Assembly (NCBI GenBank): GCA_002502215.1
Contig: DAPT01000102.1
Location: forward strand, 1 to 53,792
DNA from: Euryarchaeota archaeon UBA124
GTDB lineage: Archaea; Thermoplasmatota; Poseidoniia; Poseidoniales; Poseidoniaceae
Length of the DNA: 53,792 bases
Reading direction: 5' to 3'
How positions within the stretch are numbered: the stretch's first letter is position 1; each line of letters opens with the position of its first letter. A program made the position numbers and the translations under genes. The notes under the pieces are model-generated. The model did no database searches and was not told the DNA's origin. It saw only the letters and a list, made by a program, of their open reading frames with translations. This document shows, one piece after another, positions 7,703-29,383 of this stretch.

Positions 7703-8137
7703 AATGCTCAGGTTAAATCCAGAACCAAGCATTTGCAACAACATGACTGTTCCTAAAATAAGTAAGGTAATTCGCAGCGCAGGCGTTGTTGTATCCTCAT
7801 CGTATGCTTCACGAACAAATGCGTAACCAATAAGTCCAACACCAGTCATCGCAATCATCGTAGCAAGGGTGTCCATAACTCGTTCAAAGTCGTTGTAAGA
7901 TTCAGTATCTTGGTTAAAGTTCCTGGGATAATTCTCATCGCTTGAATCGTAATCAATTGCTGCCGGTGGTCCTGTAAAATCAGGTAGGACGCTGATCAAT
8001 CCTGCAATGAGTATGAGGATAACTCCAATCATGAGAAATTTGTGTAAGGAAAACAATCCGCCACTCAACATCGCTTGTTGCGGTGGATGATACATGTTCG
8101 TCGCAGGTGGGCTAGCTTGTTGTGCGGGTGGTTGCAT
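7694..8137 (-). CDS. Membrane protein with Pro/Gln-rich N-terminus; last gene of the archaellum-strand chain
   Basis: 147 aa: MQPPAQQASPPATNMYHPPQQ followed by three hydrophobic helices. It starts 36 nt downstream of the arlJ stop on the same strand. Confidence 0.5.
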   Translation of the reverse strand: MQPPAQQASPPATNMYHPPQQAMLSGGLFSLHKFLMIGVILILIAGLISVLPDFTGPPAAIDYDSSDENYPRNFNQDTESYNDFERVMDTLATMIAMTGVGLIGYAFVREAYDEDTTTPALRITLLILGTVMLLQMLGSGFNLSISL

Positions 8138-9983: not shown

Positions 9984-9993
9984 TCCCTCCTCA
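9984..9993 (-). promoter_or_regulatory. Stop-fused Shine-Dalgarno (TGAGGAGGGA) before arlJ
   Basis: Reverse complement TGAGGAGGGA. The TGA is the arlI stop. TTG 9976 lies 9 nt after the GGAGG core. Confidence 0.6.
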
Positions 9994-11709
9994 CTTGTGG
10001 TTGACGCCGACCCATGAATCAACGGCGCTGTCAAAATATTCCCAACCACTGTTGTAGTAAATATTCAGTAGATCGAAGACATCATCGTAATGGGTCAAAT
10101 CGCGATCTGCCATTCGCTCAATCGCAGCAGCACGTCGCAACATTTCATCGTAGATGTCACGCTTGTTCGCAAACCCTGCCATTGCAGCAATTTTGTTTTC
10201 AAGCAAGTGTGATTGGAACATACCTCGGAAGTAATGTTTGTCTTTGACCGGGTCCCATTCAAACATTCCTCTGGTCAATACACCATCGCTGTGTTTGTTG
10301 TATCCGATGACCTCGTCAATACCTGTAATTCGTCGGGCAATTCCTCCACCAGGTGCTTCGACAACTTCTTGGAAAATTGCAAAATTAAGGTTGTCGAAGA
10401 AACGGATTGGCACGTTGATCGGATCCCCTGTGAAACGTTGAATCATTTTGACGATGGAAGATGCGTGGAATGTAGCGATAACTGGGTGGCCTGTCTGCAT
10501 CGCTTGGAAGGCTGTTGCACCCTCTACACCACGTATCTCACCAATGATGATGTAACGTGGACGAGAACGCAAAGCGGCTTTGAGAAGATCGAACATCTCA
10601 ACACGTGAATCCTCATTTTTCGAATCACGTGTAACGAGGCGCTGCCAAATCTTGTGACGTACCTTCACTTCAGGTGTATCCTCTGCGGAATAAATCTTGA
10701 CGTTATGGTCAATAAAGGGAAGGATTGCATTTAGCGTTGTTGTCTTACCCGATGCTGTCTCACCAGATACCAGAACGGACATACCGTACTCCAAACAAAT
10801 CCAAATGTATGCTGCTTGTTGGGCACTCATTGTACCCCATTTTATGAGTTGAATAACGGATATTGTTTCTTCAGCGAATTTACGTATCGTGAAAGACGGT
10901 CCCAACATCGAGACGTCGTCTGAGAAAATGATGTTGATACGGGATCCATCGAGGAGTGCACCATCGATGATTGGCTTGTTGTCCGAAACAGGTCGACCGA
11001 TACGCTCAGACATGGCTCGAAGATATCGGGTAAGAATTTCGCGCTCTCTGAATCGGATGTTGGATGTAACCATCCCGAAGACCTTGTGATCCATGTGAAT
11101 GTGCTTCAATCCCACCGAGTGGATATCTTCCAGCATCTCATCGGACAGCAGAGTTTCAAGTGGGCCATTTCGGATCAAATCACGGATAACGATGTACCGC
11201 AGTCTATCACGTTGTGCATCCGAGACAACAATTCGCTTGTCGTCCAATCCGACCAGTTCCCAAATACGTCCACGACGCCTTGAGACGATGCTTGCTTCAG
11301 ATTGGGAAATCGTAAACCTGTCAATCATTTGGCCAAGGATGGTCTCAAATTCAGAATCTGTGGTAAATGAAGGGGCTGAGGGTGCTTCTTGAAGAAGTGT
11401 CTCAACCAAGTCACGGCGGAGGTTTTCCTCCTCTTCGTTCAATTGAGGTTCCAATCCAAACCAGAGAATTTGTCCCCCACCATCCTCGTCACTTGGAGGT
11501 TCATAGATGTGTACGAAGACCGGTTCTTTGGTAATGTAAATCAAATTGAGTGGGCGTTGTTTCCGAGCTCCACGATCGAGCGGACCATAGTAGATTGGAC
11601 GTGAGCCGTATCGCTTCTCAAAGTCACGAACCCAGTCTCCAACGTGACTGTGCGCAGCCATGACGCCTGCAAGGTCGCCTCGTTGAAATTTGAGTTCTTC
11701 ATCAGCCAT
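9991..11709 (-). CDS. arlI: Archaellum motor/assembly ATPase ArlI (FlaI)
   Basis: VirB11/GspE-type ATPase with Walker A SGETASGKTT, Walker B YIIIGEIRG and the His box ATFHA. Size and position are typical of FlaI. Confidence 0.95.
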   Translation of the reverse strand: MADEELKFQRGDLAGVMAAHSHVGDWVRDFEKRYGSRPIYYGPLDRGARKQRPLNLIYITKEPVFVHIYEPPSDEDGGGQILWFGLEPQLNEEEENLRRDLVETLLQEAPSAPSFTTDSEFETILGQMIDRFTISQSEASIVSRRRGRIWELVGLDDKRIVVSDAQRDRLRYIVIRDLIRNGPLETLLSDEMLEDIHSVGLKHIHMDHKVFGMVTSNIRFREREILTRYLRAMSERIGRPVSDNKPIIDGALLDGSRINIIFSDDVSMLGPSFTIRKFAEETISVIQLIKWGTMSAQQAAYIWICLEYGMSVLVSGETASGKTTTLNAILPFIDHNVKIYSAEDTPEVKVRHKIWQRLVTRDSKNEDSRVEMFDLLKAALRSRPRYIIIGEIRGVEGATAFQAMQTGHPVIATFHASSIVKMIQRFTGDPINVPIRFFDNLNFAIFQEVVEAPGGGIARRITGIDEVIGYNKHSDGVLTRGMFEWDPVKDKHYFRGMFQSHLLENKIAAMAGFANKRDIYDEMLRRAAAIERMADRDLTHYDDVFDLLNIYYNSGWEYFDSAVDSWVGVNHK

Positions 11710-11713
11710 AATT

Positions 11714-11721
11714 TCACCTCA
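11714..11721 (-). promoter_or_regulatory. Stop-fused Shine-Dalgarno (TGAGGTGA) before arlI
   Basis: Reverse complement TGAGGTGA followed by AATT and ATG 11709. The TGA is the arlH stop. Confidence 0.75.
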
Positions 11722-12444
11722 GCTTACCGCCGTAATGTCGACAATGAAGCCCATTCCTGGTTCAACACGCCAACCTATGGACGATTGAACCGGCCCTGCA
11801 GCACGCAAGTAGCGTGTGACGAGGAGTGTGCGCTTCAAGTCACCACCAATCAAATTGGTCGATAGGTCAAGAACAACTTCAGCACTCGCTCGAAGCGAAT
11901 GCAAGAGTTTTGCATCCATTTCATCTCGATCGAGCATCAGCATAAGGCTTCGTCCTGTTGACGCAATCCTGCGCAGGCGCTGAATCATGTCAAAGCGTGC
12001 TTGGTCATCCATACCGCCTGGCATCAGTGAACTCGCTGAATCAATAACAACAATGTCGGCCTCTTCAAGCGCTTCGCTTGCAAGAACCTCATCCAGACCA
12101 ACATTGGGAATTGGATCTGCGACGGTACCAAAACGAGAAAAGATCATCAGATTTCCTTTGGTCAAGGCATCCGTAACACCGTAACCGATTGATTCCATTT
12201 GTTCGATGTATCCTCGTGTTGTAAGTTCAGTTGTAATAACAAGAACCTTCACATCATTGTGGAGCAAACCATGAACGAATCGTTGACTGACAAGCGATTT
12301 TCCGGCCCCAACCTCTCCTTGAAGCAAGATGAGACTACGATTTGGCAAGCGCAGACCAAGTGAATCAGCCAGACTGTCCGTCTCAACATCGTATGGAAAA
12401 CCATCTTCGATGGGTTTTGGTTTCTCTGAGAGTCGCTCAACCAT
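11719..12444 (-). CDS. arlH: Archaellum KaiC/RecA-like ATP-binding protein ArlH (FlaH)
   Basis: Walker A GEVGAGKS, RecA-like core (IVVIDSAS), about 240 aa, positioned between arlG and arlI. Confidence 0.88.
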   Translation of the reverse strand: MVERLSEKPKPIEDGFPYDVETDSLADSLGLRLPNRSLILLQGEVGAGKSLVSQRFVHGLLHNDVKVLVITTELTTRGYIEQMESIGYGVTDALTKGNLMIFSRFGTVADPIPNVGLDEVLASEALEEADIVVIDSASSLMPGGMDDQARFDMIQRLRRIASTGRSLMLMLDRDEMDAKLLHSLRASAEVVLDLSTNLIGGDLKRTLLVTRYLRAAGPVQSSIGWRVEPGMGFIVDITAVS

Positions 12445-12931
12445 GCAATCGCACCTCCACTGACATTGAGTCTGAGCCGCGATAACCGTTGGTTACCTCA
12501 GAGGATACGACAGCTGTAATCGAGACATCATCGCCTGATTGATAGGACCATCCATTATCACTCACGGTCACTTGCAAGAGATGATCTTCATCCCATTCAC
12601 CTGTAGCAGGTACAAGCGAGGATACGATCGATGAGGTCACGGTTTGACCATCAACAATCACAACCAACGTCGATGAATCCAACAATGTGGTTCCAGTATT
12701 TTGTAAGTAGAAGGTAATCTCGTTTGGTGATGCAGTCGTGTCCAAATCAACCATCATTGGATCACCTGCGAAATCAACGCTTGTGGCTTCTTGCACCTCA
12801 ATTGCTGCAGTTTCCTGTGCAGTAATCTGAGCGATGTCACCCCATTGATTGATGAGGACAACGCTCACCAAACCTGAAACGAGCAATGCTGTTGTCAGGA
12901 AAATAAACGATGATGCTCCGCCGTCAGCCAT
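12437..12931 (-). CDS. arlG: Archaellum stator-associated protein ArlG (FlaG)-like
   Basis: N-terminal archaellin-like hydrophobic helix (SSFIFLTTALLVSGLVSVVL) followed by a beta-rich domain (FYLQNTGTTLL, VVIVDG). Occupies the canonical position before arlH. Confidence 0.6.
   Translation of the reverse strand: MADGGASSFIFLTTALLVSGLVSVVLINQWGDIAQITAQETAAIEVQEATSVDFAGDPMMVDLDTTASPNEITFYLQNTGTTLLDSSTLVVIVDGQTVTSSIVSSLVPATGEWDEDHLLQVTVSDNGWSYQSGDDVSITAVVSSEVTNGYRGSDSMSVEVRLHG
12452..12458 (-). promoter_or_regulatory. Shine-Dalgarno (GGAGGTG) before arlH, inside arlG
   Basis: Reverse complement GGAGGTG, 7 nt before ATG 12444. arlH and arlG overlap as ATGGTTGA (12437..12444). Confidence 0.7.
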
Positions 12932-12935
12932 AGTA

Positions 12936-12943
12936 TCTCCTCA
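12936..12943 (-). promoter_or_regulatory. Stop-fused Shine-Dalgarno (TGAGGAGA) before arlG
   Basis: Reverse complement TGAGGAGA followed by TACT and ATG 12931. The TGA is the arlF stop. Confidence 0.7.
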
Positions 12944-13600
12944 TGCTAGTGTATGGGCCGCCGTCATGCCGCCTGCGGTAAGGGAGATCCGTTCGTACGT
13001 CGTCGGTCCGTCTTCGGACCAATCGAGGAAGATTGTTTCTCCGGGGTACCAGTTCGTGCTGCTAATCGATGGTGTGTAAGCCGAACCCAAGTTTGTCGGT
13101 GTCTGGGAGGTGCCTCCATCGAGGAAGAGCCAGACCTCTCGTAGGGGTAGCGTTACAGTTCCAGTGTTGGTAAGATTGCCGTAGATGTGATTTCCAATGT
13201 CGGAGCTGAGCGAGGCCGTAACACTCACACCGGATTGTCCAGACGGATCGACTGTGATTGTAGGAGGGGACGAGTAATTGCCGCGACTGGTGATTGTCAC
13301 GGTTTCTATTCCTCCTGCTGAATCGACAGTAAACGTTCCAGAGAATCCGCTTCCTGTTCCTGTTGCAACCAACGTTCCATCCACGTATCCACTTCCGTTG
13401 TTGTTGATGTTGATGGTGAGTACAGCACCTTCCCAGAGGGTAGTATCATCGATACGGAATGACGGTAAAGGGTCTCCAGCATCATCGATGGCCTCGAGGC
13501 TAGCATCCAAGCGGTTGTCGAGCGTCTGCACTGCAAGTGCAAAAACCAACAACAACGAGGTACCAACAACGAGAGCACCAACACCTACCGAAGCACCCAT
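12941..13600 (-). CDS. arlF: Archaellum stator-associated protein ArlF (FlaF)-like
   Basis: N-terminal hydrophobic helix (GVGALVVGTSLLLVFALAV), beta-rich ectodomain, WYPGETIFLDW near the C-terminus. Occupies the canonical position before arlG. Longer than typical FlaF. Confidence 0.55.
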   Translation of the reverse strand: MGASVGVGALVVGTSLLLVFALAVQTLDNRLDASLEAIDDAGDPLPSFRIDDTTLWEGAVLTININNNGSGYVDGTLVATGTGSGFSGTFTVDSAGGIETVTITSRGNYSSPPTITVDPSGQSGVSVTASLSSDIGNHIYGNLTNTGTVTLPLREVWLFLDGGTSQTPTNLGSAYTPSISSTNWYPGETIFLDWSEDGPTTYERISLTAGGMTAAHTLA

Positions 13601-13603
13601 TGA

Positions 13604-13613
13604 TCATTCCTCC
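13604..13613 (-). promoter_or_regulatory. Shine-Dalgarno (GGAGGAATGA) before arlF, with the upstream stop codon at its 3' end
   Basis: Reverse complement GGAGGAATGA followed by TCA and ATG 13600. The TGA is the stop of 13604..14449. Confidence 0.7.
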
Positions 13614-14449
13614 GATTTCATTGATTGTGAACGCCAAGATTCAACAATCGCTGAAAAGGTAAGCAGTTTGCGATGCGAAAGATGGTCGTTTAATGCCGAT
13701 TCTGCCTCACCAGGTGCGGCCAACTGAACGATTGCGAGGACTGCTCGCCCTTCGTCTTCGCTCAGCATCCCGCTCTGAACAGCCTTCTGAGCAAAACTCA
13801 CGGCTGCCATCCCAGAGAGATTATCCAGCAACAGTGCGGCAACCATTGCCGCACCTACGCCATCGTTCGCAGCTTGCTCGTAGGAACCCTTCGCTAGGAA
13901 GGGATTCGCTGCAAGAGCCTGCGCCTCATACAATTCAACAAGGCGTGCTTCATCGGATTGTCGCAATCGATCGACGCCGTCGCCTACAGGAAGAACTTCT
14001 CCATCTGCAGTTACGATGGTATCGCCTTCTGCTCCATCAACGGAAACAACATCATCACCGGTGCCTTCAGCGAAATCTTCCTCGCCTTCAACAGCAGGTG
14101 CAACGTTTGCTTGCTCCATCTTGTTTGAAATCAGTCCAAGCACATCTTCGACCATGTCGAGACGGCTACTGATCATACGTTCCAGTCCAGATGTATCCAC
14201 CTGAGCGTTGACGGGTGCTGCCGGTTGAGGCGCTAGCGTCGCTGCTACAGATGGTACAGATCCTATACTGTTCAATCGTGCTCGAGTCGGACCGGGGGAT
14301 ATGGTCCATGCATCCTCTTCACTCAACTCCCCTTGTTCAGGGAGTGGCACTTGTTCAATGGCCACATTGGCCATAATCTTCAAGCGCTCTTCTGCGAGTT
14401 CAGCGTCTGCGTCCCGGTCGTTCCCTGCATTGCCAAATGGCCATGCCAT
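13604..14449 (-). CDS. Acidic soluble archaellum accessory protein, ArlD/E (FlaD/E)-like by position
   Basis: Sits between the archaellins and arlF, where euryarchaeal flaC/D/E genes lie. Has no TM helix, a short coiled segment (LERMISSRLDMVEDVLGLISNKMEQ) and LYEAQALAANPFL. Homology not verified. Confidence 0.4.
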   Translation of the reverse strand: MAWPFGNAGNDRDADAELAEERLKIMANVAIEQVPLPEQGELSEEDAWTISPGPTRARLNSIGSVPSVAATLAPQPAAPVNAQVDTSGLERMISSRLDMVEDVLGLISNKMEQANVAPAVEGEEDFAEGTGDDVVSVDGAEGDTIVTADGEVLPVGDGVDRLRQSDEARLVELYEAQALAANPFLAKGSYEQAANDGVGAAMVAALLLDNLSGMAAVSFAQKAVQSGMLSEDEGRAVLAIVQLAAPGEAESALNDHLSHRKLLTFSAIVESWRSQSMKSEE

Positions 14450-14455
14450 GGAATA

Positions 14456-14462
14456 ACCTCCT
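14456..14462 (-). promoter_or_regulatory. Shine-Dalgarno (AGGAGGT) before the ArlD/E-like gene
   Basis: Reverse complement AGGAGGT, 6 nt before ATG 14449. It lies in the 3' arm of the hairpin 14457..14500. Confidence 0.7.
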
Positions 14463-14500
14463 GTGCTCGACCTGCTAGAAGCAAGTCATTGCACAGGGAG
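14457..14500 (-). promoter_or_regulatory. Interrupted RNA hairpin immediately 3' of the archaellin genes that occludes the next gene's SD
   Basis: Minus-strand RNA: CUCCCUGUGC-AAUGA-CUUGCU-UCU-AGCAGG-UCGA-GCACAGGAGG. The outer 7-bp stem is CCUGUGC/GCACAGG, with two more pairs after a mismatch. The inner 6-bp stem is CUUGCU/AGCAGG (one G-U pair) with a 3-nt loop. The 3' arm contains AGGAGG. Confidence 0.55.
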
Positions 14501-14502
14501 AC

Positions 14503-15081
14503 TCAGACCACCACTGCTCCAGCAGAGTCGTCGTTGACCTTGAGAACGTCGTAGGTTGTTCCACCGCCAACGACGTGGAGGTAGAGCGTTGCCTTGACGT
14601 TGTTCGTGAACAATGCGTTAGGACCGCAGTCACCGACTCCGTCATCTGCGGAAACGGTGGTTCTGTATCCCGTACCAGCAGCAGCAGTATTAACCGCAGC
14701 AGCGCCAGATAGTGGGTCAATTGCTGAATCGCCGAAATCGCCGGCGATTCGATCCATTCCTGCTGCACCATCATCACAGAAAATCTGGAAGAGGATGTCA
14801 GCGTCTGCCGTGTCATCGGAACCAGCAGCGAGTCTGAAGTAGACCTCGAAACTGGAATCGTCAGCAACAAAGACGTTGAGGACTTGGACTTTACCAGACA
14901 TTTCGTCAGTGGTATCGTCACCAGTGGATTGTGCGTTCTGTTGAAGCTTCTCTGCAGTCTGGATAATGACCGCAGCAGCGACAGCAGCAACAAGAATCAA
15001 TGCAATGAATACAATCATTGCACCAATACCGATTGCGGCTAGGTTATCGTTTTTCATGTTCTTATCTTGTGTATTCTTCAT
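14503..15081 (-). CDS. arlB: Archaellin (second copy)
   Basis: Class III signal peptide plus the conserved hydrophobic N-terminus AIGIGAMIVFIALILVAAVAAAVIIQTAEKLQQNAQ. ATG 15081 lies 5 nt after GAGGTGAT. Confidence 0.93.
   Translation of the reverse strand: MKNTQDKNMKNDNLAAIGIGAMIVFIALILVAAVAAAVIIQTAEKLQQNAQSTGDDTTDEMSGKVQVLNVFVADDSSFEVYFRLAAGSDDTADADILFQIFCDDGAAGMDRIAGDFGDSAIDPLSGAAAVNTAAAGTGYRTTVSADDGVGDCGPNALFTNNVKATLYLHVVGGGTTYDVLKVNDDSAGAVVV
14929..15039 (-). repeat. Conserved archaellin N-terminal segment (copy in arlB2), paralogous to 15513..15623
   Basis: 37 codons (AAIGIG...QQNAQ) encode an amino-acid sequence identical to the other copy, but about 17 codons differ at synonymous sites. 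Confidence 0.85.
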
Positions 15082-15086: not shown

Positions 15087-15095
15087 ATCACCTCA
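15087..15095 (-). promoter_or_regulatory. Stop-fused Shine-Dalgarno (TGAGGTGAT) between the two archaellin genes
   Basis: Reverse complement TGAGGTGAT followed by GAAAG and ATG 15081. The TGA is the stop of the first archaellin. Confidence 0.75.
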
Positions 15096-15659
15096 GACTA
15101 CAACGTCTCCTACCGCCGGAGCGCTACCATATTGGAGTTCTTCGTATGTGGATCCGCCACCGATAACAGAGATCACAAGAATGTGGTCTGTGTTTGCAGT
15201 TGGGCCACAGGTTGGTACGTCAATGACAACAACATAGGTTGTTCCTGGATTCAATGTGATTCCAGCGACAGTTTCGCCGTTTCCATCGTGAGCAGTTGCT
15301 CCGCTGAAGTCACCATCATCGAATGCAGCACTGCCTGCACCATCATCACAAATGACAGTGAAAGCGAGGTCCGTACCTAGAATGGGTTCTGAACCGGGTG
15401 CCAACTCAAAGGTGGAGAAGAGTTCTTCTGCACCTCCGGTCATGTCGTCAATGACGGTCGAGAGCAGAATGACCTTTGTGGACATTTGCTCTTGGGTGTC
15501 GTCACCACTGGCTTGTGCGTTCTGTTGCAGCTTTTCAGCGGTCTGTATAATGACCGCAGCCGCTACTGCCGCAACCAGAATCAGCGCAATGAAGACAATC
15601 ATCGCACCAATACCGATCGCAGCAAGTTCGTCTTGCTTCGTTTCTTTTTCGGTTTTCAT
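15093..15659 (-). CDS. arlB: Archaellin (first copy)
   Basis: Same conserved N-terminus as the downstream copy. ATG 15659 (MKTEKETKQDELA/AIGIG) lies 5 nt after AGGTGA. The ORF track start 15668 is a GTG inside that SD. Confidence 0.93.
   Translation of the reverse strand: MKTEKETKQDELAAIGIGAMIVFIALILVAAVAAAVIIQTAEKLQQNAQASGDDTQEQMSTKVILLSTVIDDMTGGAEELFSTFELAPGSEPILGTDLAFTVICDDGAGSAAFDDGDFSGATAHDGNGETVAGITLNPGTTYVVVIDVPTCGPTANTDHILVISVIGGGSTYEELQYGSAPAVGDVVV
15513..15623 (-). repeat. Conserved archaellin N-terminal segment (copy in arlB1), paralogous to 14929..15039
   Basis: See the partner entry. Identical at the protein level, divergent at third codon positions. Confidence 0.85.
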
Positions 15660-15664: not shown

Positions 15665-15670
15665 TCACCT
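15665..15670 (-). promoter_or_regulatory. Shine-Dalgarno (AGGTGA) before the first archaellin
   Basis: Reverse complement AAAAAGGTGAAAAAAATG, giving 5 nt of spacing to ATG 15659. Confidence 0.6.
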
Positions 15671-15682
15671 TTTTTTACTCGT

Positions 15683-15702
15683 CCTCCCTCAAGTGAGGGT
15701 GG
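15683..15702 (-). promoter_or_regulatory. Short GC-rich hairpin in the spacer upstream of the first archaellin
   Basis: Minus-strand RNA CCACCCUC-ACUU-GAGGGAGG: a 5-bp perfect stem CCCUC/GAGGG, a mismatch, two more G-C pairs, and a tetraloop. Confidence 0.4.
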
Positions 15703-15715
15703 AATGGGATGTGGG

Positions 15716-16708
15716 TCACGGAGCACCTCCATGACCCAAGTCAATTCGAAGTGGTACTCGAAGAACAGCCACTTCGTCTGGCGATAGCCTGCTAATGAAC
15801 GGCACCTTGTCGGCAGTAAAGCCGGGTGGCATCCATGGTTGAATGAGAACATCGACGAGTGGTTCCATCGACCTGTTTTGTGCACGAACGGTTACTGTCA
15901 CGTTACCATTCCTCATTTCGTACCCGGTCGCGATTGAAAGTTTTCGTGAAAGTGGGATTTCATCGGCACCCTGTCTCCGGTGTGCTTGTATCTCAAATCT
16001 GACCGGAAGATTTCCTCCTGGGCCAATCACTGGAACATCGATAAAGGATGGTTTTGCTTCCCATCCCTCTGGAACAGGGGGCGCAAGACGCATCATTGGA
16101 AGAGGAATATCACCGTCGTTGATGATGCGGACAAGAAGGATGCCGATTTCTCCACCAGCAGGCCATCGTGTATCAACAGAGAGCCAGAAGTGACGGAAAA
16201 GGAACGGGTTGAGCGTCGAAGAGTTGCCTCCAATGAGGTCGTCTACGAGGTACTCGACTTCGGTTGCAGCGTATCCAACATCTCCGATTTCTGCAGCTCC
16301 TGTGGCATTGCGAAGTCGACGGAGTACGTTCTCAACTTCTTCTTCTGCGAGGGCCTTCTCTCGCAACAATCGATGCAGCATTGCAATGCTTCTTCGCAAG
16401 TAAAGGACATCCTCTTCGAGGACGTTGAGGGCTTTTTCAGCCCGACGCACACTCTTTCGAGCACGGCGCAAGCGATGTGTTTCCAAGAACGTCTTTGCCT
16501 GAAGGAGATCGAGTTCTGTGGTAGCAAGGGAGTTGACTTCATCACTCACAACGTTTTGTACGAGGGACTCAAGTTCTCGACTCGCTTGCATCAGTCTTTG
16601 AGCGCTTTCATTGGATGCAGCAATCGCAGCTTGTGCATCGGTGAGATCTCCCTCGCCTAATTCAGAATCCATGATGAAGTCATCTTGCTCAGACTTGCTC
16701 TTCGCCAT
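15716..16708 (-). CDS. Cytoplasmic coiled-coil protein with C-terminal NEW3/CARDB-like beta-sandwich; possible ArlC-like accessory protein
   Basis: No signal peptide or TM helix. Residues about 30-135 are heptad-rich (LESLVQNV..., RRAEKALNVLEEDVLYLRRSIAMLHRLLREKALAEEEVENVLRRL), followed by NPFL. The C-terminal part, IINDGDIPL...PPVPEGWEAKP...GPGGNLPVRFEI, resembles NEW3/CARDB modules. A strong SD (GAGGAGGTGAT) lies 5 nt upstream. Confidence 0.7.
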   Translation of the reverse strand: MAKSKSEQDDFIMDSELGEGDLTDAQAAIAASNESAQRLMQASRELESLVQNVVSDEVNSLATTELDLLQAKTFLETHRLRRARKSVRRAEKALNVLEEDVLYLRRSIAMLHRLLREKALAEEEVENVLRRLRNATGAAEIGDVGYAATEVEYLVDDLIGGNSSTLNPFLFRHFWLSVDTRWPAGGEIGILLVRIINDGDIPLPMMRLAPPVPEGWEAKPSFIDVPVIGPGGNLPVRFEIQAHRRQGADEIPLSRKLSIATGYEMRNGNVTVTVRAQNRSMEPLVDVLIQPWMPPGFTADKVPFISRLSPDEVAVLRVPLRIDLGHGGAP

Positions 16709-19700
16709 TTGGAATCACCTCCTCATTGGTATCCGCACCGTTTTGGTTATCAGAAGTCGCAGTCGATTGCGGTGTGTCGAGGATTGCGGATAAGTCCAAA
16801 CCATCCATTGCAAGGTCATTCAGGAGACGAGCAGGGTCGCCCAAGTCTCGCTCAATTCGCGTTGCTTTCACTTCGATATCGGTGAGTTTTCCGTAGAGCG
16901 AACCGTAGAGCCTGTTCGAACGACGTAAGACGAACCATACAACGATGGTTGAAACGAGGATGTAAGACACGAGTGATATCAGGTTGATTTCATCGGGCGT
17001 CATTTGTGGAGGTAGCCCCAAAACAACACCAATGAACCCGAGCAGAGGCAGACTCAAGATGATGGTGAGTTGTCGGCGTGAATCGGTTAAGGCTTGGAAG
17101 TGGTCAGCGTAGATGGTGGAAATGCCCTTTCGTGCGCGTTGGTAGTCTTCGTGGATGTAGCGGAATTCTTCACTGCTCCGCCATGCCATTCGCCAAACCC
17201 ACAGCGATGCCAAAACGATTGTGACCGGACCCCACCACGTTGCGTCATAGAGATGGAAAAGGAAACCGAGCATGATTGTACCAGAATAGACAGCGCCCAA
17301 ACGGTATTTTTCGTTCTGGTTGGTCAATCCAAGCAAACCAATCGTGATGATCAGAGCGATACCAAATCCTGCAAAAGAGGTTAGTGTCGAAGGTGCACTT
17401 GAATCAACTTCCTGACTGAAATTCAATTCATCGTTTTCAACGAGGTTGTTGAAAGCATAGTCTGAAACAATCCGAACCGAGCATTCAGCATCCCTGCTTT
17501 GTTCCCACCAATCGAGTGTTTCGCCGGTAACCTCCCAGCGAAGAGCCTTGCTTGTTCTCACGTCAAGCACCGGTACATAACTTGGTACATTTTCGATAAC
17601 CATGCCTTCACAAAGAAGTTCGGAATTTATTCCAAATGCAGGAGCAGTCCCCTTGTTTTTCAAGTCGAATTCAAGGAAAGCTGTCTGCCCTTCCATGATG
17701 AAGTCGATTTCCTTCCCAGTCGCATCGACGATTCGTTGCGATTCAGGATCAATCATCGGATCGGCATAGGCATTGAGGGCAAAGCGGAATGTTTCTTCAG
17801 TCACTGGTTCGGCCGGGTCAGGATGGTGAAGGAGCATCTTGATGTCGTATCCATCGCCGGCCATCACGTTTGGATATGGAAGTTTGATGTTGAACAGCAT
17901 GTTGGTTGGGGTGTTCGCAGACAGTTCAGGGAGTTCAATCAATTCACTACCAGGGACGCATGGAGCAGTGAGATTGATGTAATGATCTTCTCCAGGGAGA
18001 TTCGTAAGGGATATGTTCCAGACATAATCTTCTTCCTCAGCATTCTCGATATCGTCGAAATCGAGAATTCGCTCGATGCCACAAAACTCGATTGAATAGG
18101 CAACCGGATCATTGTTGAGGTATGGTATGTGTGAATATGTGATGGGCACATAGACAGGGCTGTCGCTTGCCGGTGCTTCAAGACTCGCTGCGAATCCAAT
18201 ATCAAACAGACGCTTCATCCGAAGGGATGTCATCAGTTCTCCGCTTTCGTCAATATCGACAGCCGTTGGAACGATTGTGACCCGGAGATCTGCAGCGGTT
18301 GTTAAGGTGGTGCTACTGCTGCCTGCTGAGTTCTTGTCGACGCTCACAGTTAACTCGACAGGGACTTGGATTGGAAGGAAGAGTTGGCTCGATGAATCTG
18401 CATTAACAACCCAATCGTCGCTCAATGTGGTTAAACCGGGTGCTCGAACTTCGTAGCCTAAATCCACGGTTACATCCACGTTTCCTGTATTCGTGATGAT
18501 TGCTTTCCAGTTCCTGTTATCTCCCTCATGGAAAAAGTACTCATTTTCCCAACCCTCGATAGTATAAGTGAAGATTGGTGCAACTACCAATTCCACTTTC
18601 TTGAGGGCGTACACTTCATCCGTTACTGAATTGTAGACGGTCAGATTTGCATAGTGGATGGCTCCGTCGAGAAGATTATCTGTTCCATCGAGTGCGGGAA
18701 TATCGATATCGAAAGAGCCGCTGGAGTCTCCATCAATCGGAACTGTGAACGACTGAACAGTAGGTGTCGTGCTCCAACCACCGTCGACTGTAATATTGAT
18801 GTTGACGGTCTCAACAAGGTTCCCTGTGTTGAAAAGACTGAATGGCAGCGTCAGGGTCGTACCTGGAGTAGCAGAGAGTGAGTCGTCTGCGATAAGTTGG
18901 ACATCATGTACCTCAGAGACGTTTGCAACGATGTTGGCTTTGAGCTCGACAAGATCTCCGTTTTCATCGGCCATCGAGACGGTGAGAATCGCCATGTAGA
19001 AGTCGTCTGCGCTAGCATCTGGTGAAGGAACAATGTTGACTCGAACGGAGGATTCATACCCCGCAGCGATGATAATGCTTGAGGAGGAATCGAGTTCAAA
19101 CAACACATCCTCGTATCCGCCGTTATCAAGTTCGATAGAGTAGGTCGTAGGAGCGTTTCCAGTGTTTTCGATGTTGACAAACGCTGAGAGCTGCTCAAAC
19201 GGTGTGATGTCGATTGACTGGTTTGTGGGAGTCAGCGAAGCATTGATTGTTTCGCCGACGCGTATATCCATTGTTTGTTGGCCGATGTAACTACCAGAGT
19301 CAAGATCGTAGTATCGAACGGTCAAAGGCTGGAGGAGTCCAGACGGAGCAAGTGGGTTCGTCTTAACCGTAAGTGTGACCAGGGACAAATGACCTCCACT
19401 TGTTGCAGGATAATCTTCGAAATCACTTGCAAGTTCCAGAATGGTGTTATTAGGACCTGTTGTGGTCAGGTTAGCATACCACCCACTCGGAAGGTTTTCG
19501 ACGATTTCGAGGCGATACGATGAACGGTCGTTTCCTGTGTTTCCAAACGTGAACATGAAGTCTGTGTCCACGCCAACATCTGCATCAAGAGGACCGGTCT
19601 CCGTGATCTCGCCATTGACCACCTTTGGTACAACGATGGAGAGATTTTGCTCGATAACAGGCGAGTATACCGCAGATGAGGTATGGACACCTCCAAGGGT

Positions 19701-21575
19701 GGGCGTGGTTGTGATTGGTATTTTCACAGTTCCTGCCAAAGGAAGTTGGCCTGTTCGACTTTGGATACCAAGCGAAGCGGGGAAGGATTCCCCTAGGGTT
19801 AGTCCTGTCGCTTCTCCAGGAGTAATGGTCGCATTCCATCGGTCTGCCTCGTTAAATCCACCCGATGTAAGCGCTTCGAAGGTGATGTCCCCTACAGTGA
19901 TGTTGGCGTCGATTGTTTCGGAAAGGTCGGAAACAAGATTGTGACGGACTTGAACCTCCAAGGCAAGAATTTCATTCACACCTGTGGAGGCGCCTGCGTT
20001 CATGACATCGTTTTGAGTCAAAACAATGGTGTCAACAGGGAGCCCAGGGTCAACGACAATCGCAGGGCGAACTTCAATCTGGCCTGCGTCCGTGGTAGGG
20101 ATACTGCCAACATCTGCTTGTGCGATGATGTATGCACTGAGACTGTCCCCGGCACGATTGTGTTCAGCGTCGACCAAGGGCAACTGAATTGGCGGGACCT
20201 CAACATGGATGAAGCCTGAAATTGATTCTCCTACTTTCAACTCGCCCGTACTCTCTATGGAGAGGTTGTAATTCCAATTTAGTGCATTCAAGGACAGCCC
20301 AGCTATGAGGTTGAAGTCACCGTCTGCATTGCCCGTGTTTGTAACATTGAAACCTATGGTGTCGGTCTTGCCGGGTAGAACGTACGTTGTATCGTTCGTG
20401 ATGTCTACGGTGGCTTGAAGGAACTCTCCTGCCATGACACGGGTTGTGTCTGAGAGAGGGTATCCACTACCTGACGAGGTCAACGTGAGGGTGACGATGT
20501 CCACAGCCGACTGAAGTGCGCTTTGTGGTACGTCAACAACAACAGAAATGGTTGTTGTTTGTCCGGCAGTTAGGGGGGTTGTCGAGGTGCCGTCCAGTGT
20601 AGTATCTGCCCAGCCCAACGAACTGCTAACGCCAATGTCGAATATGTCTGTTGTTGCGCCTATGTTTTTGATGATGTAGTAGAGCGTGGTTGAGTCTCCG
20701 GGAATGGTGGTGCGATCTGCAGGACCTACCATCTCTGCAATGTAGTCGCTGAAAATCACATCGAATTCAACATGCGTAAATGATTCAGGTCCGGCTGAGC
20801 CGTTGGTCCATACAACCACGGAAACGTTCCATAGTCCTGTCAATATGGATGCCGAAAAACCTGCGCTAAGGACTTCTCCTTGTGCCTCTGAAAAAATAGA
20901 ACCAGGTTCGATGGTTTCGGTGTTAGATGCAGCCCAATGCTCTATTGTCTCTCCGGTTGATGCATTGAACAACACCAAACCCATAACCGCAGAGAATTCC
21001 ATGACGCCATCGTTACGAATTGTTGCATTGAATGTGTGCGATTGACGGTCGAGGAAAACATTGGTGTTTCCTGGCGCTGGAGAGGGGAAATCATCGGATT
21101 CGATAAACGATTTACGATAGGTTTCAACGTCGAAGTCCCATCGATATTCGTTGTTGGCCGTGTTGCCATCGTTGGCCCCGGAAACTCGAGCAAACAACGT
21201 TTGCGATGGTCCGGTTGTAGCTGTCCAACTGAGTAGATAGGTGGTCGTCCCCGAACTTGCAGCCACAGGACCGAGATCAACGGTATCAACGATTTGTTCA
21301 GCGGCGCTTGGAGAACCCTTGTGGACAAGCGACAGGAAGGCACTACCGGTGGAGGTCCCTGCGTTGTCGACATCGACTCGTACGGTATGTGTGCTCGGAG
21401 CGAGAATCAAGCCGGTGCTCGTAGAGACGGACCCTGCCCCATCAAATTCCATGTTGACAACGCGGAAGTCAGGGCCTGCACGACCGCTCGTTGAGGATGC
21501 GTCTGCAAATGGAAGCGCCAAGTGCCCAAGTAGCAAAACAACAAGAAGAAGAGGCAACCCTCTTTGCTTAAACAT
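16689..21575 (-). CDS. Giant surface protein: signal peptide, about ten CARDB/NEW3-like beta-sandwich repeats, five C-terminal TM helices, cytoplasmic acidic tail
   Basis: MFKQRGLPLLLVVLLLGHLALPFADA signal. A recurring xNxGN motif appears roughly every 110-120 aa (VDNAGTS, IRNDGVM, IKNIGAT, VTNTGNA, FGNTGND, IENTGNA, LFNTGNL, ITNTGNV, LKNKGTA), with P.GW motifs (LPSGWYANL). Five hydrophobic segments map to about nt 16920..17390. ATG 21575 lies 6 nt after GGAGGTG. Confidence 0.85.
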   Translation of the reverse strand: MFKQRGLPLLLVVLLLGHLALPFADASSTSGRAGPDFRVVNMEFDGAGSVSTSTGLILAPSTHTVRVDVDNAGTSTGSAFLSLVHKGSPSAAEQIVDTVDLGPVAASSGTTTYLLSWTATTGPSQTLFARVSGANDGNTANNEYRWDFDVETYRKSFIESDDFPSPAPGNTNVFLDRQSHTFNATIRNDGVMEFSAVMGLVLFNASTGETIEHWAASNTETIEPGSIFSEAQGEVLSAGFSASILTGLWNVSVVVWTNGSAGPESFTHVEFDVIFSDYIAEMVGPADRTTIPGDSTTLYYIIKNIGATTDIFDIGVSSSLGWADTTLDGTSTTPLTAGQTTTISVVVDVPQSALQSAVDIVTLTLTSSGSGYPLSDTTRVMAGEFLQATVDITNDTTYVLPGKTDTIGFNVTNTGNADGDFNLIAGLSLNALNWNYNLSIESTGELKVGESISGFIHVEVPPIQLPLVDAEHNRAGDSLSAYIIAQADVGSIPTTDAGQIEVRPAIVVDPGLPVDTIVLTQNDVMNAGASTGVNEILALEVQVRHNLVSDLSETIDANITVGDITFEALTSGGFNEADRWNATITPGEATGLTLGESFPASLGIQSRTGQLPLAGTVKIPITTTPTLGGVHTSSAVYSPVIEQNLSIVVPKVVNGEITETGPLDADVGVDTDFMFTFGNTGNDRSSYRLEIVENLPSGWYANLTTTGPNNTILELASDFEDYPATSGGHLSLVTLTVKTNPLAPSGLLQPLTVRYYDLDSGSYIGQQTMDIRVGETINASLTPTNQSIDITPFEQLSAFVNIENTGNAPTTYSIELDNGGYEDVLFELDSSSSIIIAAGYESSVRVNIVPSPDASADDFYMAILTVSMADENGDLVELKANIVANVSEVHDVQLIADDSLSATPGTTLTLPFSLFNTGNLVETVNINITVDGGWSTTPTVQSFTVPIDGDSSGSFDIDIPALDGTDNLLDGAIHYANLTVYNSVTDEVYALKKVELVVAPIFTYTIEGWENEYFFHEGDNRNWKAIITNTGNVDVTVDLGYEVRAPGLTTLSDDWVVNADSSSQLFLPIQVPVELTVSVDKNSAGSSSTTLTTAADLRVTIVPTAVDIDESGELMTSLRMKRLFDIGFAASLEAPASDSPVYVPITYSHIPYLNNDPVAYSIEFCGIERILDFDDIENAEEEDYVWNISLTNLPGEDHYINLTAPCVPGSELIELPELSANTPTNMLFNIKLPYPNVMAGDGYDIKMLLHHPDPAEPVTEETFRFALNAYADPMIDPESQRIVDATGKEIDFIMEGQTAFLEFDLKNKGTAPAFGINSELLCEGMVIENVPSYVPVLDVRTSKALRWEVTGETLDWWEQSRDAECSVRIVSDYAFNNLVENDELNFSQEVDSSAPSTLTSFAGFGIALIITIGLLGLTNQNEKYRLGAVYSGTIMLGFLFHLYDATWWGPVTIVLASLWVWRMAWRSSEEFRYIHEDYQRARKGISTIYADHFQALTDSRRQLTIILSLPLLGFIGVVLGLPPQMTPDEINLISLVSYILVSTIVVWFVLRRSNRLYGSLYGKLTDIEVKATRIERDLGDPARLLNDLAMDGLDLSAILDTPQSTATSDNQNGADTNEEVIPNGEEQV
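16714..16724 (-). promoter_or_regulatory. Strong Shine-Dalgarno (GAGGAGGTGAT) for the coiled-coil gene, embedded in the last codons of the giant gene
   Basis: Reverse complement GAGGAGGTGAT followed by TCCAA and ATG 16708. The giant ORF continues to its TGA at 16689, giving a 20-nt overlap. Confidence 0.75.
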
Positions 21576-22008
21576 CAGCTGCACCTCCAGCCCGCTCAAA
21601 TCGTTGGATGGTTATGGAGCGACCTTGGGACTTCCAAATTTCGAGAAGTTGATCGAGAAGTCGGTCGTGCTCGTCATCCGAAATACCCAATCTTCGCCGC
21701 TCTTCCCAAAGGAGGAGTTGTTCCGTGCGGGTCAAGAGCGCATCGCGAAGATACAATTCGAGGGTTCGTCGGTAAGCGTCTCTGTCGGATACAGCGTAAA
21801 CAATCGAGTTGCCGGGCAGTTGATCAGCACGGTTTTGGATGAAGTTACCAAGATTCAGTGCTTCATCGTAAGAGATGTTGCGCCGGTCAAGATTGCTTTG
21901 AATCGTCGAAGCGATGCTCTGCAAATCATAGCGAGTTTTCGCTCTCTGGATTTTTTTGAAGTATTTGCGGCTTCGTCGCGTCATGCTTGGAGCCGCCATG
22001 AGTGACAT
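21568..22008 (-). CDS. Small basic helical protein, unknown function (first gene of the chain)
   Basis: Arg/Lys-rich N-terminus (MTRRSRKYFKKIQRAKTRY) and a predicted all-helical body (LTRTEQLLLWEERRRLGISDDEHDRLLDQLL). Its TAA overlaps the giant gene ATG (ATGTTTAA). Start uncertain: TTG 22029, ATG 22008, 21999 or 21984. Confidence 0.5.
   Translation of the reverse strand: MSLMAAPSMTRRSRKYFKKIQRAKTRYDLQSIASTIQSNLDRRNISYDEALNLGNFIQNRADQLPGNSIVYAVSDRDAYRRTLELYLRDALLTRTEQLLLWEERRRLGISDDEHDRLLDQLLEIWKSQGRSITIQRFERAGGAADV
21582..21588 (-). promoter_or_regulatory. Shine-Dalgarno (GGAGGTG) for the giant gene, embedded in the 153-aa gene
   Basis: Reverse complement GGAGGTG followed by CAGCTG and ATG 21575. 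Stop and start overlap as ATGTTTAA (21568..21575). Confidence 0.75.
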
Positions 22009-22065
22009 GCCTAACCGGCAGTTTATCAAACAATTGGAGGAAAAGCGTGAGTTTATTCATAACGC

Positions 22066-22080
22066 ATGAAAATATATGCA
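22066..22080. promoter_or_regulatory. AT-rich, near-palindromic TATA-like element in the divergent spacer between the 153-aa gene and bcp
   Basis: ATGAAAATATATGCA is the only AT-rich block between the two divergent genes. It could serve either or both directions. Confidence 0.3.
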
Positions 22081-22155
22081 GAGTACATCCACTGTTGAAT
22101 CACGCTCTTGTGGTTTGAACCAAGCATTGATGATGTCCAATGCCACCCACAAGTC

Positions 22156-22641
22156 ATGAACAAACCTGTTGATCTAGAAATTGGGTCAAAAAGCCCACTG
22201 TTTTCATGCCTCGACTCTGCTGGAAACACCCATGATCTTGAAGCATACATGAACCAAGGAAAAAAAGTCATTCTGTATTTTTACCCACGCGATTCAACCC
22301 CAGGCTGCACAAACCAAGCATGCAATTTCCGTGACAATATGGCTCGACTTGCAACCGAAGGCTATGTTGTCTTGGGCGTCTCAAAAGGCTCGGAATCCTC
22401 GCATGAGAAATTTATTGCAAAAGAGGAACTCAATTTCCCATTGCTCATGGACATGGACGGACAACTCCACGAAACCTTTGGAACATGGAGAATCAAGAAG
22501 AACTACGGCAAGGAATACCTCGGATGCGTTCGCTCAACGTTTGTCATTGACAGCAACGGCGACATTGCTTGGTGCAGATACAACGTACGTGCAACAGGCC
22601 ACGTCGATATGCTCATGAGAGAACTCGAAATTGTATCGTGA
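22156..22641 (+). CDS. bcp: Peroxiredoxin, Bcp/PrxQ type
   Basis: YFYPRDSTPGCTNQAC: peroxidatic Cys in the PxxxTxxC context plus a resolving Cys five residues later. ATG 22156 (MNKPVDLEIGSKSP) fits family N-termini. The track start 22108 is a TTG. Confidence 0.9.
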   Translation: MNKPVDLEIGSKSPLFSCLDSAGNTHDLEAYMNQGKKVILYFYPRDSTPGCTNQACNFRDNMARLATEGYVVLGVSKGSESSHEKFIAKEELNFPLLMDMDGQLHETFGTWRIKKNYGKEYLGCVRSTFVIDSNGDIAWCRYNVRATGHVDMLMRELEIVS

Positions 22642-27601: not shown

Positions 27602-29383
27602 TTAGCGACGCCAATCATGTTTGCTGGCAAGTGGATGTCGCCAGCCTTGACCAAATGCTCGTGATGAGACACGAGGTGCTGGCGACATCTGCCAACGTTT
27701 GTGTTCATTGGCTTCGAGGCGTTGCAAGACGGACACAACCGTTTCATAATCAAAGCCAAGTTTAGCGATTGTTTCTGCACCAAGTCCTTTTTCGATGTGG
27801 TTTTTGAGAATCTCATCAAGTGTTTCGTACGGTGGAAGCGTGTCGTCATCTCGTTGGTCTGGAGCAAGTTCCGCAGAGGGTGGCTTGGTCATGGTCGAGG
27901 TGTTCACAGGAGGTTTCTGTTGGCGTTCAAGAGCACGACGGTTAAACACTTCAGCGAGTCCGTAGACTTCCATTTTGTAGACGTCTCCCAAAGGAGTGTA
28001 TCCCCCTGCCATATCACCGTACAGTGTACAGTATCCTTGAGCGAGTTCTGATTTGTTTCCAGTTGCAATAGCCATTCGTCCCTGCGCATTTGCATGTGCC
28101 ATTACAAGAATTCCGCGTAGACGTGATTGAATGTTCTCCGCAGCGACTTTGGAACCTTCCTCAAGCATTTGTTCGAGGTGTTGTTCAATCCCCGAGTGAT
28201 GGGAATCAATCGAAATCGTAGCATACTCCATTCCGAGGGCTTCCGCGGTGTACTTTGCATCATCCATGGAATGCTGAGATGAAAAACGGGAGGGCATCGA
28301 TATTCCCAGAACATTTTCTGGCCCGACAGCTTCTGCGGCTACACATGCCGCAACCGCAGAGTCAATGCCGCCGCTTAATCCCAGAACGATTTGTTCAATC
28401 CCTGATTTCTGACAATAATCACGCAGTCCAATGATGACTGCGTCGGCGAGTTCTTCAAGAACATCCTCACGCTCATTCCCAATTCCGTCGGGCGAGAAGT
28501 GTTTGACTTCACCTTCTTTGGATTCCATTGAAATCCAAGTCGTCGCTTGTGGATCGTTGATGTCGACAAGAAGGATGCCTTCTTGCCATGACGGGGCGAC
28601 AACCACATCGCCGGATGGCCATGCTGCGAGTGAACGACCGTCGAAAAGGAGGTCATCGTTACCGCCTATTTGATTTGAGAGAAGAAAGGGGTGCCCGAGG
28701 GTTTTAGCTGCTGTTCGGGCTACGTGAAGACGGGTCTGAATTTTGTTTGAGTGGTAGGGCGATGCAGAAAGGTTCACCGTTGCATCAAGATTGACACCTT
28801 GACGGCCCCATTCTGCCAATTGTTCGATGGGATCTGCATCGTATTCGGATGGAGTCTCTCCAGCGATTTGCCAAGCATCCTCACAAACCGTTACCCCCAA
28901 CTCGAGGGGTGACAAGAGTGTACGGGCAATCCCAGGCCGGTCGTCCGAGTCGAAGTAACGGGCCTCATCAAAAACATCGTAAGTAGGGAGCAATTGCTTT
29001 CTCGCAACAATTTTCACTGGCGCTTTGTTTCCAAGAAGAGCAACTCCATTGCCTGGTTTTCCACGGTCATGGTCCGGAATTGTAGGCGTTCCAATCAACG
29101 ACGGAATCTCAACATCGAGTTCCCATACTGCGTGTTGTGCAATCTCGACAAAATTTGATTGCATCAACAAATCGCGAGGAGGATATCCACAAATGGCTAA
29201 TTCTGTACTGACGGTTGCAACCGCTCCAGAAGCGGCCGCAGTTCGAATAAATCGTTCAAGACGTTGCGCATTTCCGGCGATGTCGCCCACGGTTGGGTTG
29301 AGTTGAAGCAGTGCAATGATGCTCCCATCTTGCTCGCCCATGACCATCCCACGTGGTCGGGTTTCATAGAAATGATGCATCAT
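27602..29383 (-). CDS. nadE: Glutamine-dependent NAD+ synthetase (CN-hydrolase domain + PP-loop synthetase domain)
   Basis: N-terminal nitrilase-like domain (IALLQLNPTVGDIAGN, VCEDAW) and C-terminal PP-loop LGLSGGIDSAV. Start ambiguous: ATG 29383 overlaps the upstream stop as ATGA. ATG 29347 or 29341 would fit family N-termini better. Confidence 0.92.
   Translation of the reverse strand: MMHHFYETRPRGMVMGEQDGSIIALLQLNPTVGDIAGNAQRLERFIRTAAASGAVATVSTELAICGYPPRDLLMQSNFVEIAQHAVWELDVEIPSLIGTPTIPDHDRGKPGNGVALLGNKAPVKIVARKQLLPTYDVFDEARYFDSDDRPGIARTLLSPLELGVTVCEDAWQIAGETPSEYDADPIEQLAEWGRQGVNLDATVNLSASPYHSNKIQTRLHVARTAAKTLGHPFLLSNQIGGNDDLLFDGRSLAAWPSGDVVVAPSWQEGILLVDINDPQATTWISMESKEGEVKHFSPDGIGNEREDVLEELADAVIIGLRDYCQKSGIEQIVLGLSGGIDSAVAACVAAEAVGPENVLGISMPSRFSSQHSMDDAKYTAEALGMEYATISIDSHHSGIEQHLEQMLEEGSKVAAENIQSRLRGILVMAHANAQGRMAIATGNKSELAQGYCTLYGDMAGGYTPLGDVYKMEVYGLAEVFNRRALERQQKPPVNTSTMTKPPSAELAPDQRDDDTLPPYETLDEILKNHIEKGLGAETIAKLGFDYETVVSVLQRLEANEHKRWQMSPAPRVSSRAFGQGWRHPLASKHDWRR

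Follow-up and report, generated by a model that had tools for sequence, protein, structure and literature searches.

S-layer-like (surface-layer-like) proteins with several immunoglobulin-like (Ig-like) domains have been noted in the archaellum loci of Methanococcales (arCOG05057) and Thermococcales (bioRxiv 10.64898/2026.04.22.720090), and haloarchaeal type IV pilus loci of subclade 4F encode an S-layer-like protein together with a coiled-coil cytoplasmic protein of arCOG07564 (PMC4858521). The cytosolic ring component of the archaellum depends on the lineage, being ArlX or ArlCDE where it has been described and unidentified in Thaumarchaeota (PMC8978795), and the anchoring of the stator in Thermoplasmatota without an S-layer is an open question (PMC12448462). 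The archaellum of marine group II (MGII) archaea has been described only from flaB, flaH, flaI and flaJ, and chemotaxis genes are absent from these organisms (PMC6461757; PMC6864105). Here, we analyzed a stretch of 53,792 nucleotides (hereafter the window; contig DAPT01000102.1, positions 1 to 53,792) from Euryarchaeota archaeon UBA124, a marine group IIa (MGIIa) archaeon of the Poseidoniaceae, in which a module of three genes, p143, p1628 and p330, stands directly ahead of the archaellin genes. A metatranscriptome paper on MGII is silent on these genes (PMC9723583), and our literature search found no description of module genes upstream of the MGII archaellins. The analysis suggests that p1628 and p330 may serve the archaellum as an accessory or anchor that spans the envelope and is specific to Poseidoniales, a reading that we regard as evenly poised between right and wrong; p143, judged by its distribution, is an MGIIa addition to this pair.

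A single chain of co-oriented genes runs on the minus strand of the window from 22029 to 8174 in the order p143-p1628-p330-arlB1-arlB2-p281-arlF-G-H-I-J, and the Arch_flagellin archaellins occur with ArlF, ArlG, ArlH, ArlI and ArlJ in one co-oriented array, which makes it an arl cluster. The three open reading frames (ORFs) that an earlier note on this DNA had described as co-oriented and directly ahead of the archaellins were recovered at 22029..21568, 21575..16689 and 16708..15716, all on the minus strand, together with the overlaps that it had reported, p143 and p1628 sharing ATGTTTAA (8 nt) and p1628 and p330 sharing 20 nt. The Shine-Dalgarno (SD) sequences that it had seen inside the upstream genes were also located, with GGAGGTG 7 bases 5′ of the p1628 start and GAGGAGGTGA ahead of the p330 ATG, which is placed 20 nt within the p1628 gene. 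In most tabulated loci, the p330 and p1628 genes either abut or share 8-20 nt, the exceptions being a few fragmentary contigs. The features of the module and its borders are listed below.

22022..22030, minus strand: TATA-like box TTTGATAAA, centred about 27 nt 5′ of the ATG at 21999; putative promoter
21568..21999, minus strand: p143, basic and strongly conserved, without a family match
16689..21575, minus strand: p1628, with a signal peptide, ten Ig-like repeats, a unique region, about five transmembrane (TM) segments and a cytoplasmic tail
17463..21392, minus strand: p1628 ectodomain with ten Ig-like repeats (residues 62-1371), from an iterated hidden Markov model (HMM) and from Pfam Ig_VWA7, NPCBM_assoc and CARDB
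16692..17396, minus strand: p1628 membrane base (residues 1394-1551) with loop (residues 1468-1500), and tail (residues 1552-1628), from hydropathy
15716..16708, minus strand: p330, cytoplasmic, with a helical region and an Ig-like beta-sandwich
15682..15703, minus strand: hairpin in the p330-arlB1 spacer, TCC-A-CCCTC / loop / GAGGG-A-GGA

A synteny survey across Poseidoniales loci placed p1628 and p330 directly before arlB wherever the contig reaches that far. Scanning one genome per GTDB species with a p330 profile gave 169 relatives, 80 of which were kept (Poseidoniales or unclassified archaeal metagenome-assembled genomes (MAGs), save two with bacterial labels), and in all of the evaluable species loci (77/77) arlB follows p330 and the giant gene precedes it. 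An independent retrieval of metagenome contigs through p281 showed p330 in the upstream position at 37/37 loci and, where the sequence extended far enough, p1628 at 30/30. The gene order in MGIIa is p289-p155-bcp (opposite strand), p143-p1628-p330-arlB1-arlB2-p281-arlF-G-H-I-J-p147 and nth (opposite strand); one related locus is that of the original MG-II genome (L049, CM001443), and names such as Candidatus Poseidoniaceae archaeon are attached to homologues, in keeping with MGIIa as the origin of the window. Divergent full-length homologues of p330, only 25-33% identical, were located in eight places, one of them a Thalassarchaeaceae MAG, and each lies between a giant gene and arlB (8/8). The giant gene at these distant loci encodes about 1560-1645 aa, being called once as two ORFs and elsewhere cut by the contig end, and its flanks, where visible, have on one side DNA primase, DUF373, a gene of 254-256 aa and a divergently transcribed gene of 390-393 aa, with PolC DP2 on the other side, so that DUF373, primase and PolC DP2 replace bcp and nth. 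In marine group IIb (MGIIb), the giant protein is collinear with p1628 (24% identity over residues 9-1579, E 3e-63). The p143 gene was seen only in the MGIIa (Poseidoniaceae) loci examined and was not found in MGIIb loci, in which p281 is kept. Thus, of the trio that the earlier note had set beside arlB, the p1628/p330 pair is always directly upstream and p143 is not, which leaves a two-gene core. Among 1.84 billion cluster representatives, searched exhaustively with HMMER, only 58 clusters belong to the p330 family at E≤1e-3. Judged from these gene orders, the module is no chance neighbour of the arl genes, and the link between its p1628-p330 core and the archaellum cluster extends across the order. 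Archaellum cluster contigs were also observed under the MAG names 'uncultured Rhodobiaceae bacterium' (L003, CALDQY010000305.1) and 'Salipiger bermudensis' (L012, CAXQWT010000116.1); their p330 proteins are 95-96% identical, and the bacterial names are probably binning errors.

The giant protein p1628 begins with a hydrophobic segment (residues 5-28) read as its signal, has a pI of 4.1 and carries 20 N-x-S/T sequons. Its repeats, put earlier at about ten, were counted with an HMM seeded on residues 283-395 and iterated over 14 orthologues, which converges on 10 (62-132, 178-267, 293-381, 402-502, 561-635, 668-773, 799-885, 905-997, 1018-1111 and 1296-1371) and finds 10 in every MGIIa orthologue and 9 in two MGIIb orthologues. 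Pfam matches of the repeats are weak and only marginally above the gathering thresholds, with Ig_VWA7 at E 4.5e-9 (36.9 bits, threshold 27), NEW3 (NPCBM_assoc) at 2.2e-5 (25.0 bits, threshold 24.4) and CARDB at 1.1e-4 (22.8 bits, threshold 22.7). Hydropathy agrees with the five C-terminal TM helices and the cytoplasmic acidic tail proposed earlier, giving five segments of which three are strong and two moderate, and either count puts the loop at 1468-1500 and the 77-residue tail in the cytoplasm. Orthologues have a near-constant length of about 1625-1670 aa, and their identity at the deeper MGIIa nodes is 36-46%, similar to that of the extracellular ArlB, ArlF and ArlG. The best-conserved 40-residue windows of p1628 are the cytoplasmic loop between TM3 and TM4, which carries invariant W, E, H, D, G and H residues, and the tail helix at residues 1553-1592 (0.77 for both vs about 0.5 elsewhere). 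A repeat number and a length that stay fixed at 24% identity are unlike what would be expected of a repeat-variable adhesin. A word-index search with the C-terminal module yielded nothing but fragments, a minority with Poseidoniales or Thermoplasmatota labels and the majority unnamed metagenome proteins, and showed no wider distribution of this module. The window holds a second giant ORF (29380..34491, minus strand, 1703 aa) with a C-terminal hydrophobic segment, which BLASTP ruled out as a paralogue of p1628.

The p330 protein, in which hydropathy found no hydrophobic or TM segment, consists of a variable acidic N-terminus, helices, a junction motif NPF(L/F)F..FW and an Ig-like beta domain. 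It had been read as one long coiled coil plus a NEW3-like module; the AlphaFold2 model instead has five helices (residues 19-160), and the second module is upheld as a beta-sandwich (residues 174-322) whose similarity to NEW3 is weak, since it scores 17.0 bits against the NPCBM_assoc cut-off of 24.4 (E 0.007). This model, built from 38 sequences including MGIIb, has a mean confidence (pLDDT) of 73, rising to 80-90 in the beta-sandwich; an earlier model from 12 close sequences (pLDDT 59) was set aside. The p1628 repeat HMM matches the p330 beta domain weakly (E 1e-4 to 1e-2), at a constant position and in many family members, so it is reasonable to suppose that the two share a fold class, and we claim homology between them no further. 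No informative Pfam or NCBIfam family was found for p330, as the profile searches also showed for p143, and a PDB sequence search with the p330 profile gave nothing meaningful. Foldseek of the model against PDB returned only generic Ig-like domains, cytoplasmic or extracellular (TM-score ≤0.26). They include ciliary ASH/PapD-like proteins, transglutaminase beta-barrels, TRAP and FixG-related proteins; components of archaella or pili were not among them. Identity of p330 at the deeper MGIIa nodes is 62-73%, like that of ArlH (69-75%). Taken with the overlapping genes, these features of the two proteins point to p1628 as a membrane-spanning protein whose cytoplasmic face is the most constrained part and which would be made jointly with a dedicated cytosolic partner.

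The first gene, given as 153 aa in the earlier note, almost certainly encodes 143 aa from the ATG at 21999; its orthologues have 143-147 aa, and the TTG at 22029 that would start the longer form adjoins the conserved TATA-like box at 22030..22022. The mean column identity of the p143 orthologues is 80%, the pI of the 153-aa version is 9.8, and no Pfam, NCBIfam or PDB sequence match was obtained, PDB being searched with the p143 profile. The block (GATTC)TTTCAATAAC, represented in the window by TTGTTTGATAAAC, keeps a constant distance of about 27 nt ahead of the p143 ATG across 20 diverse MGIIa loci, with no SD alongside. A TATA-like box about 27 nt before the ATG without an SD is the geometry of a leaderless archaeal promoter, and the box at 22022..22030 is the probable promoter of a leaderless transcript that opens the gene chain. 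Further 5′, the interval 22040..22100 between p143 and a divergent bcp-like gene (22108..22641, plus strand) is AT-rich and carries partly palindromic motifs of the ATGCA...TGCAT type, which recur 5′ of the TATA-like box in other MGIIa loci and could be regulator sites common to both genes.

The starts of p1628, p330, arlB1 and p281 all have a strong SD, unlike that of p143. Candidate starts of arlB1 are the GTG at 15668 and the ATG at 15659, and the latter, with the SD AGGTGA 6 nt before it, is most likely the one used. The 56-nt spacer between p330 and arlB1 has no canonical TATA box, nor does one precede arlB1 elsewhere in this clade, and it holds a hairpin at 15703..15682, as had been noted, followed on its 3′ side by a conserved GGACGAG, an A-run and the SD AGGTGA. 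The hairpin was seen in 75 distinct spacers and is kept across MGIIa with compensatory changes. In an alignment of 36 representative MGIIa spacers, 86.7% of the cells are paired, and the covariation score of 0.249 (0.085 in shuffles) is reached by none of 500 shuffles and lies above all slid controls. One stem position occurs as UA12/GC9/UG9/CG5/AU1, and the presence of G-U pairs speaks for a structure formed in RNA. By its folding energy the hairpin does not stand out (z -1.1), and Rfam gave no match for the spacer. Similar elements were observed elsewhere: the arlB2-p281 spacer (14460..14497, minus strand) contains an inverted repeat CCTGTGC...GCACAGG around a smaller stem-loop that ends at the p281 SD, and other MGIIa clades carry different complementary stems there, such as CTGAGTCC/GGACTCAG and CTAAGGGC/GCCCTTAG. 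With stems in both spacers, hairpins bracket the archaellin genes on each side. At MGIIb and distant loci, a short perfect hairpin was observed after the p330 stop (L083, about 11057..11085, ATTCCTC-cccgaac-GAGGAAT; L085, about 2670..2690, CACACC-tacg-GGTGTG), with TATA-like boxes between it and arlB, and it may mark the 3′ end of the upstream unit there.

The genes of the chain would be expressed from the leaderless-type promoter ahead of p143, with translation of p143, p1628 and p330 coupled through their overlapping stop and start codons and strong SDs. In MGIIa, transcription probably runs on into arlB1-arlB2, and the hairpin-bounded archaellin segment of the long transcript may be stabilised, giving abundant archaellin mRNA. 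Some bacterial pilus operons raise the mRNA level of the major subunit by a comparable segment stabilisation. The hairpins that flank the archaellin genes thus suggest post-transcriptional control of the filament subunit supply. A scan for bacterial-type promoters and terminators was uninformative for an archaeon.

The remaining genes of the arl cluster in the window are as follows.

15093..15659, minus strand: arlB1, archaellin (Pfam Arch_flagellin PF01917, E 4e-24)
14503..15081, minus strand: arlB2, archaellin (Pfam Arch_flagellin PF01917, E 1.8e-16)
13604..14449, minus strand: p281, Poseidoniales-specific cytoplasmic protein in the ArlC/D/E slot
12941..13600, minus strand: arlF-like gene (NCBIfam ArlF, E 5e-8, under the curated cut-off)
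12437..12931, minus strand: arlG-like gene (NCBIfam ArlG, E 2e-13, under the curated cut-off)
11719..12444, minus strand: arlH, KaiC-type ATPase
9991..11709, minus strand: arlI, 70% identical to the gene of locus L081 with a T2SSE Pfam match
8174..9976, minus strand: arlJ, 48% identical to the gene of locus L081 with a T2SSF Pfam match

The acidic, cytoplasmic p281 has no family match and is kept in the arl clusters of both MGIIa and MGIIb at the usual ArlC/D/E position; a faint FlaC_arch match (E 0.06) was obtained for 3 of its 11 orthologues. An invariant NPFL motif is common to p281 and p330, and an hhalign test of their paralogy finds this shared motif only (probability 0.3, not significant). 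The arlF-like protein (12941..13600, minus strand) is long, with 219 aa, of which the ArlF model matches only the C-terminal 85 residues, and a Gly/Ser/Thr-rich extra segment lies ahead of that part. Straight after arlJ, most MGIIa loci keep a gene for a small membrane protein, p147 (7694..8137, minus strand, in the window). Its place is taken in MGIIb loci by a 323-342-aa gene, the L086 copy of which weakly matches Arc_PepC_II, the archaeal prepilin peptidase C-terminal domain.

If the pair serves as an archaellum accessory or anchor, p1628 would be exported and remain anchored in the membrane through its multi-TM base, and its ten-domain Ig-like ectodomain would either reach into the envelope surrounding the archaellum or be one of the components of that envelope. 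On the cytoplasmic side, the conserved loop and tail would dock the soluble p330, and the two proteins together would constitute a membrane-spanning scaffold or anchor for the motor, with a role analogous to that of the cytosolic ring of ArlX/ArlCDE and of the S-layer anchoring used by ArlF/G elsewhere. Both the contact between p1628 and p330 and the anchoring role are proposed from the sequences. A bolder version, which we consider unlikely, sees in the pair the envelope anchor that the archaellum otherwise lacks in this lineage, which possibly has no canonical S-layer; the two proteins would then form a trans-membrane stator or collar whose ten-domain ectodomain surrounds or braces the filament base and whose cytoplasmic face, through p330, makes the ring that ArlX or ArlCDE make elsewhere. 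If this were true, it would be a third, structurally unrelated solution to the anchoring of the archaellar motor.

Several observations weigh against reading the pair as part of the archaellum. For the Poseidoniales envelope, a replacement of S-layer anchoring is speculation, and the Foldseek matches of p330 are generic Ig-like domains (TM-score ≤0.26). In MGIIa, synteny extends over the entire neighbourhood and takes in the housekeeping genes bcp and nth; counts from MGIIa by themselves are therefore weak, and the linkage argument rests on the fewer MGIIb and distant loci. Loci were retrieved through p330 or p281, and arl clusters without both would be missed. The earlier note had proposed that the archaellins are co-transcribed with, or depend on, the module. 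The promoter box of p143, the SD-led starts and the covarying hairpin agree with co-transcription, which is plausible from the sequence; dependence is called into question by TATA-like boxes 35-50 nt before arlB in MGIIb and related loci, where the archaellins need not depend on an upstream promoter. In some MGIIa clades, the A-rich tract of the p330-arlB1 spacer also lies at a promoter-compatible distance, and many genes of the window have no obvious TATA box, which makes the absence of one before arlB1 a weak argument.

The pair might alternatively be a co-regulated adhesin system outside the machine, with p1628 as the surface adhesin, p330 as its cytoplasmic adaptor and archaella used for particle attachment, which we consider rather unlikely, albeit a proposal to be taken seriously. 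Adhesins typically have a multi-Ig ectodomain of this kind, with CARDB/NEW3-like repeats; an adhesive function of the MGII archaellum has been proposed on the ground that chemotaxis genes are absent (PMC6461757); and the synteny is equally compatible with co-regulation. The domain number and length of p1628 are nevertheless fixed across the order, unlike those of typical adhesins, its most conserved parts are cytoplasmic, its dedicated partner p330 is conserved to the level of ArlH, and the pair was never seen apart from arlB among the loci examined. The last of these points also bears on the proposal, to our mind very unlikely, that p1628 is the main S-layer-like surface protein with its own TM anchor, p330 its organiser, and the adjacency to arl merely historical. 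The arlB adjacency survives the rearranged flanks of MGIIb, and the p330 family is very small, each member examined adjoining arlB, even though p1628 is large, acidic (pI 4.1), secreted and multi-Ig with 20 N-x-S/T sequons, S-layer-like proteins are known beside archaellum and pilus loci, and the entire MGIIa neighbourhood is syntenic. About half of the MGIIb genera are reported to have no arl operon (PMC6461757); a general envelope protein would be expected in these as well, and no arl-less context of the pair turned up, although a genome-by-genome search was not made.

It is likewise highly improbable that p330, alone or with p281, is a displaced and divergent ArlC/D/E or ArlX-like protein and p1628 an unrelated insertion. 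FlaC/D/E proteins are described as strongly diverged and as fused in various ways (PMC4858521), p330 has a second domain beside its helical part, and p281 orthologues show the weak FlaC_arch signal. Yet p330 matched neither FlaC_arch PF05377, Arch_fla_DE PF04659 nor any NCBIfam Arl model at E≤0.1, its hhalign comparison with p281 is confined to the NPFL motif at a probability of 0.3, it has no TM segment, unlike ArlX, and it is coupled to p1628 and not to p281.

Poseidoniales are among the most abundant archaea of the surface ocean. The conserved but unannotated genes that their arl cluster carries in addition number at least three (p1628, p330 and p281), and p143 is a fourth in MGIIa. As an accessory or anchor of the archaellum, p1628 and p330 are a candidate both for the anchoring of the motor without an S-layer (PMC12448462) and for the replacement of ArlX/ArlCDE (PMC8978795).

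Compared with described systems, the statement of the earlier note that no described archaellum component looks like this module was too strong, as multi-Ig S-layer-like proteins have been noted in archaellum loci (bioRxiv 10.64898/2026.04.22.720090). Likened by description to the arCOG05057 type, p1628 is also secreted, carries several Ig-like folds (a signal followed by 10 repeats) and is encoded at the arl locus, and for proteins of that type an action on the envelope that surrounds the filament has been suggested (bioRxiv 10.64898/2026.04.22.720090). However, a multi-TM base, a conserved cytoplasmic loop and tail and a coupled partner, all found in p1628/p330, are not mentioned for the arCOG05057 type, and in Poseidoniales the pair precedes the archaellins and is confined to this single order. 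The pilus loci of subclade 4F, again likened by description, are also type IV filament loci in which a secreted protein, predicted to be S-layer-like, is paired with a coiled-coil protein that stays inside the cell (PMC4858521), but they specify a pilus, not an archaellum, in another lineage.

ArlX of Thermoproteota and ArlC/D/E of Euryarchaeota are lineage-specific, non-core proteins that scaffold ArlH/I/J on the cytoplasmic side, ArlX being membrane-anchored with a helical cytosolic part (PMC8978795), and the p1628 tail together with p330 could play an analogous role. No sequence similarity between these proteins and p330 was detected with Pfam and NCBIfam profiles. Unlike ArlX, p330 has no N-terminal TM helix and joins a helical region to an Ig-like C-terminal domain, and the membrane anchor in Poseidoniales sits on a separate protein with a giant ectodomain. 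Unlike ArlC/D/E, p330 is encoded upstream of arlB1 and not between the archaellins and arlF/G, where p281 holds the slot. ArlF and ArlG, the periplasmic stator anchored to the S-layer, have a proposed role in holding the motor against the envelope (PMC12448462), and the operon analyzed here also has ArlF-like and ArlG-like genes; ArlF and ArlG are small, archaellin-like monotopic proteins, whereas p1628 is about 10 times larger and polytopic with a conserved cytoplasmic face. The Poseidoniales pair is set apart from all of these systems by its polytopic base with a conserved cytoplasmic face, its coupled cytosolic partner, its position ahead of the archaellins and its new sequence families.

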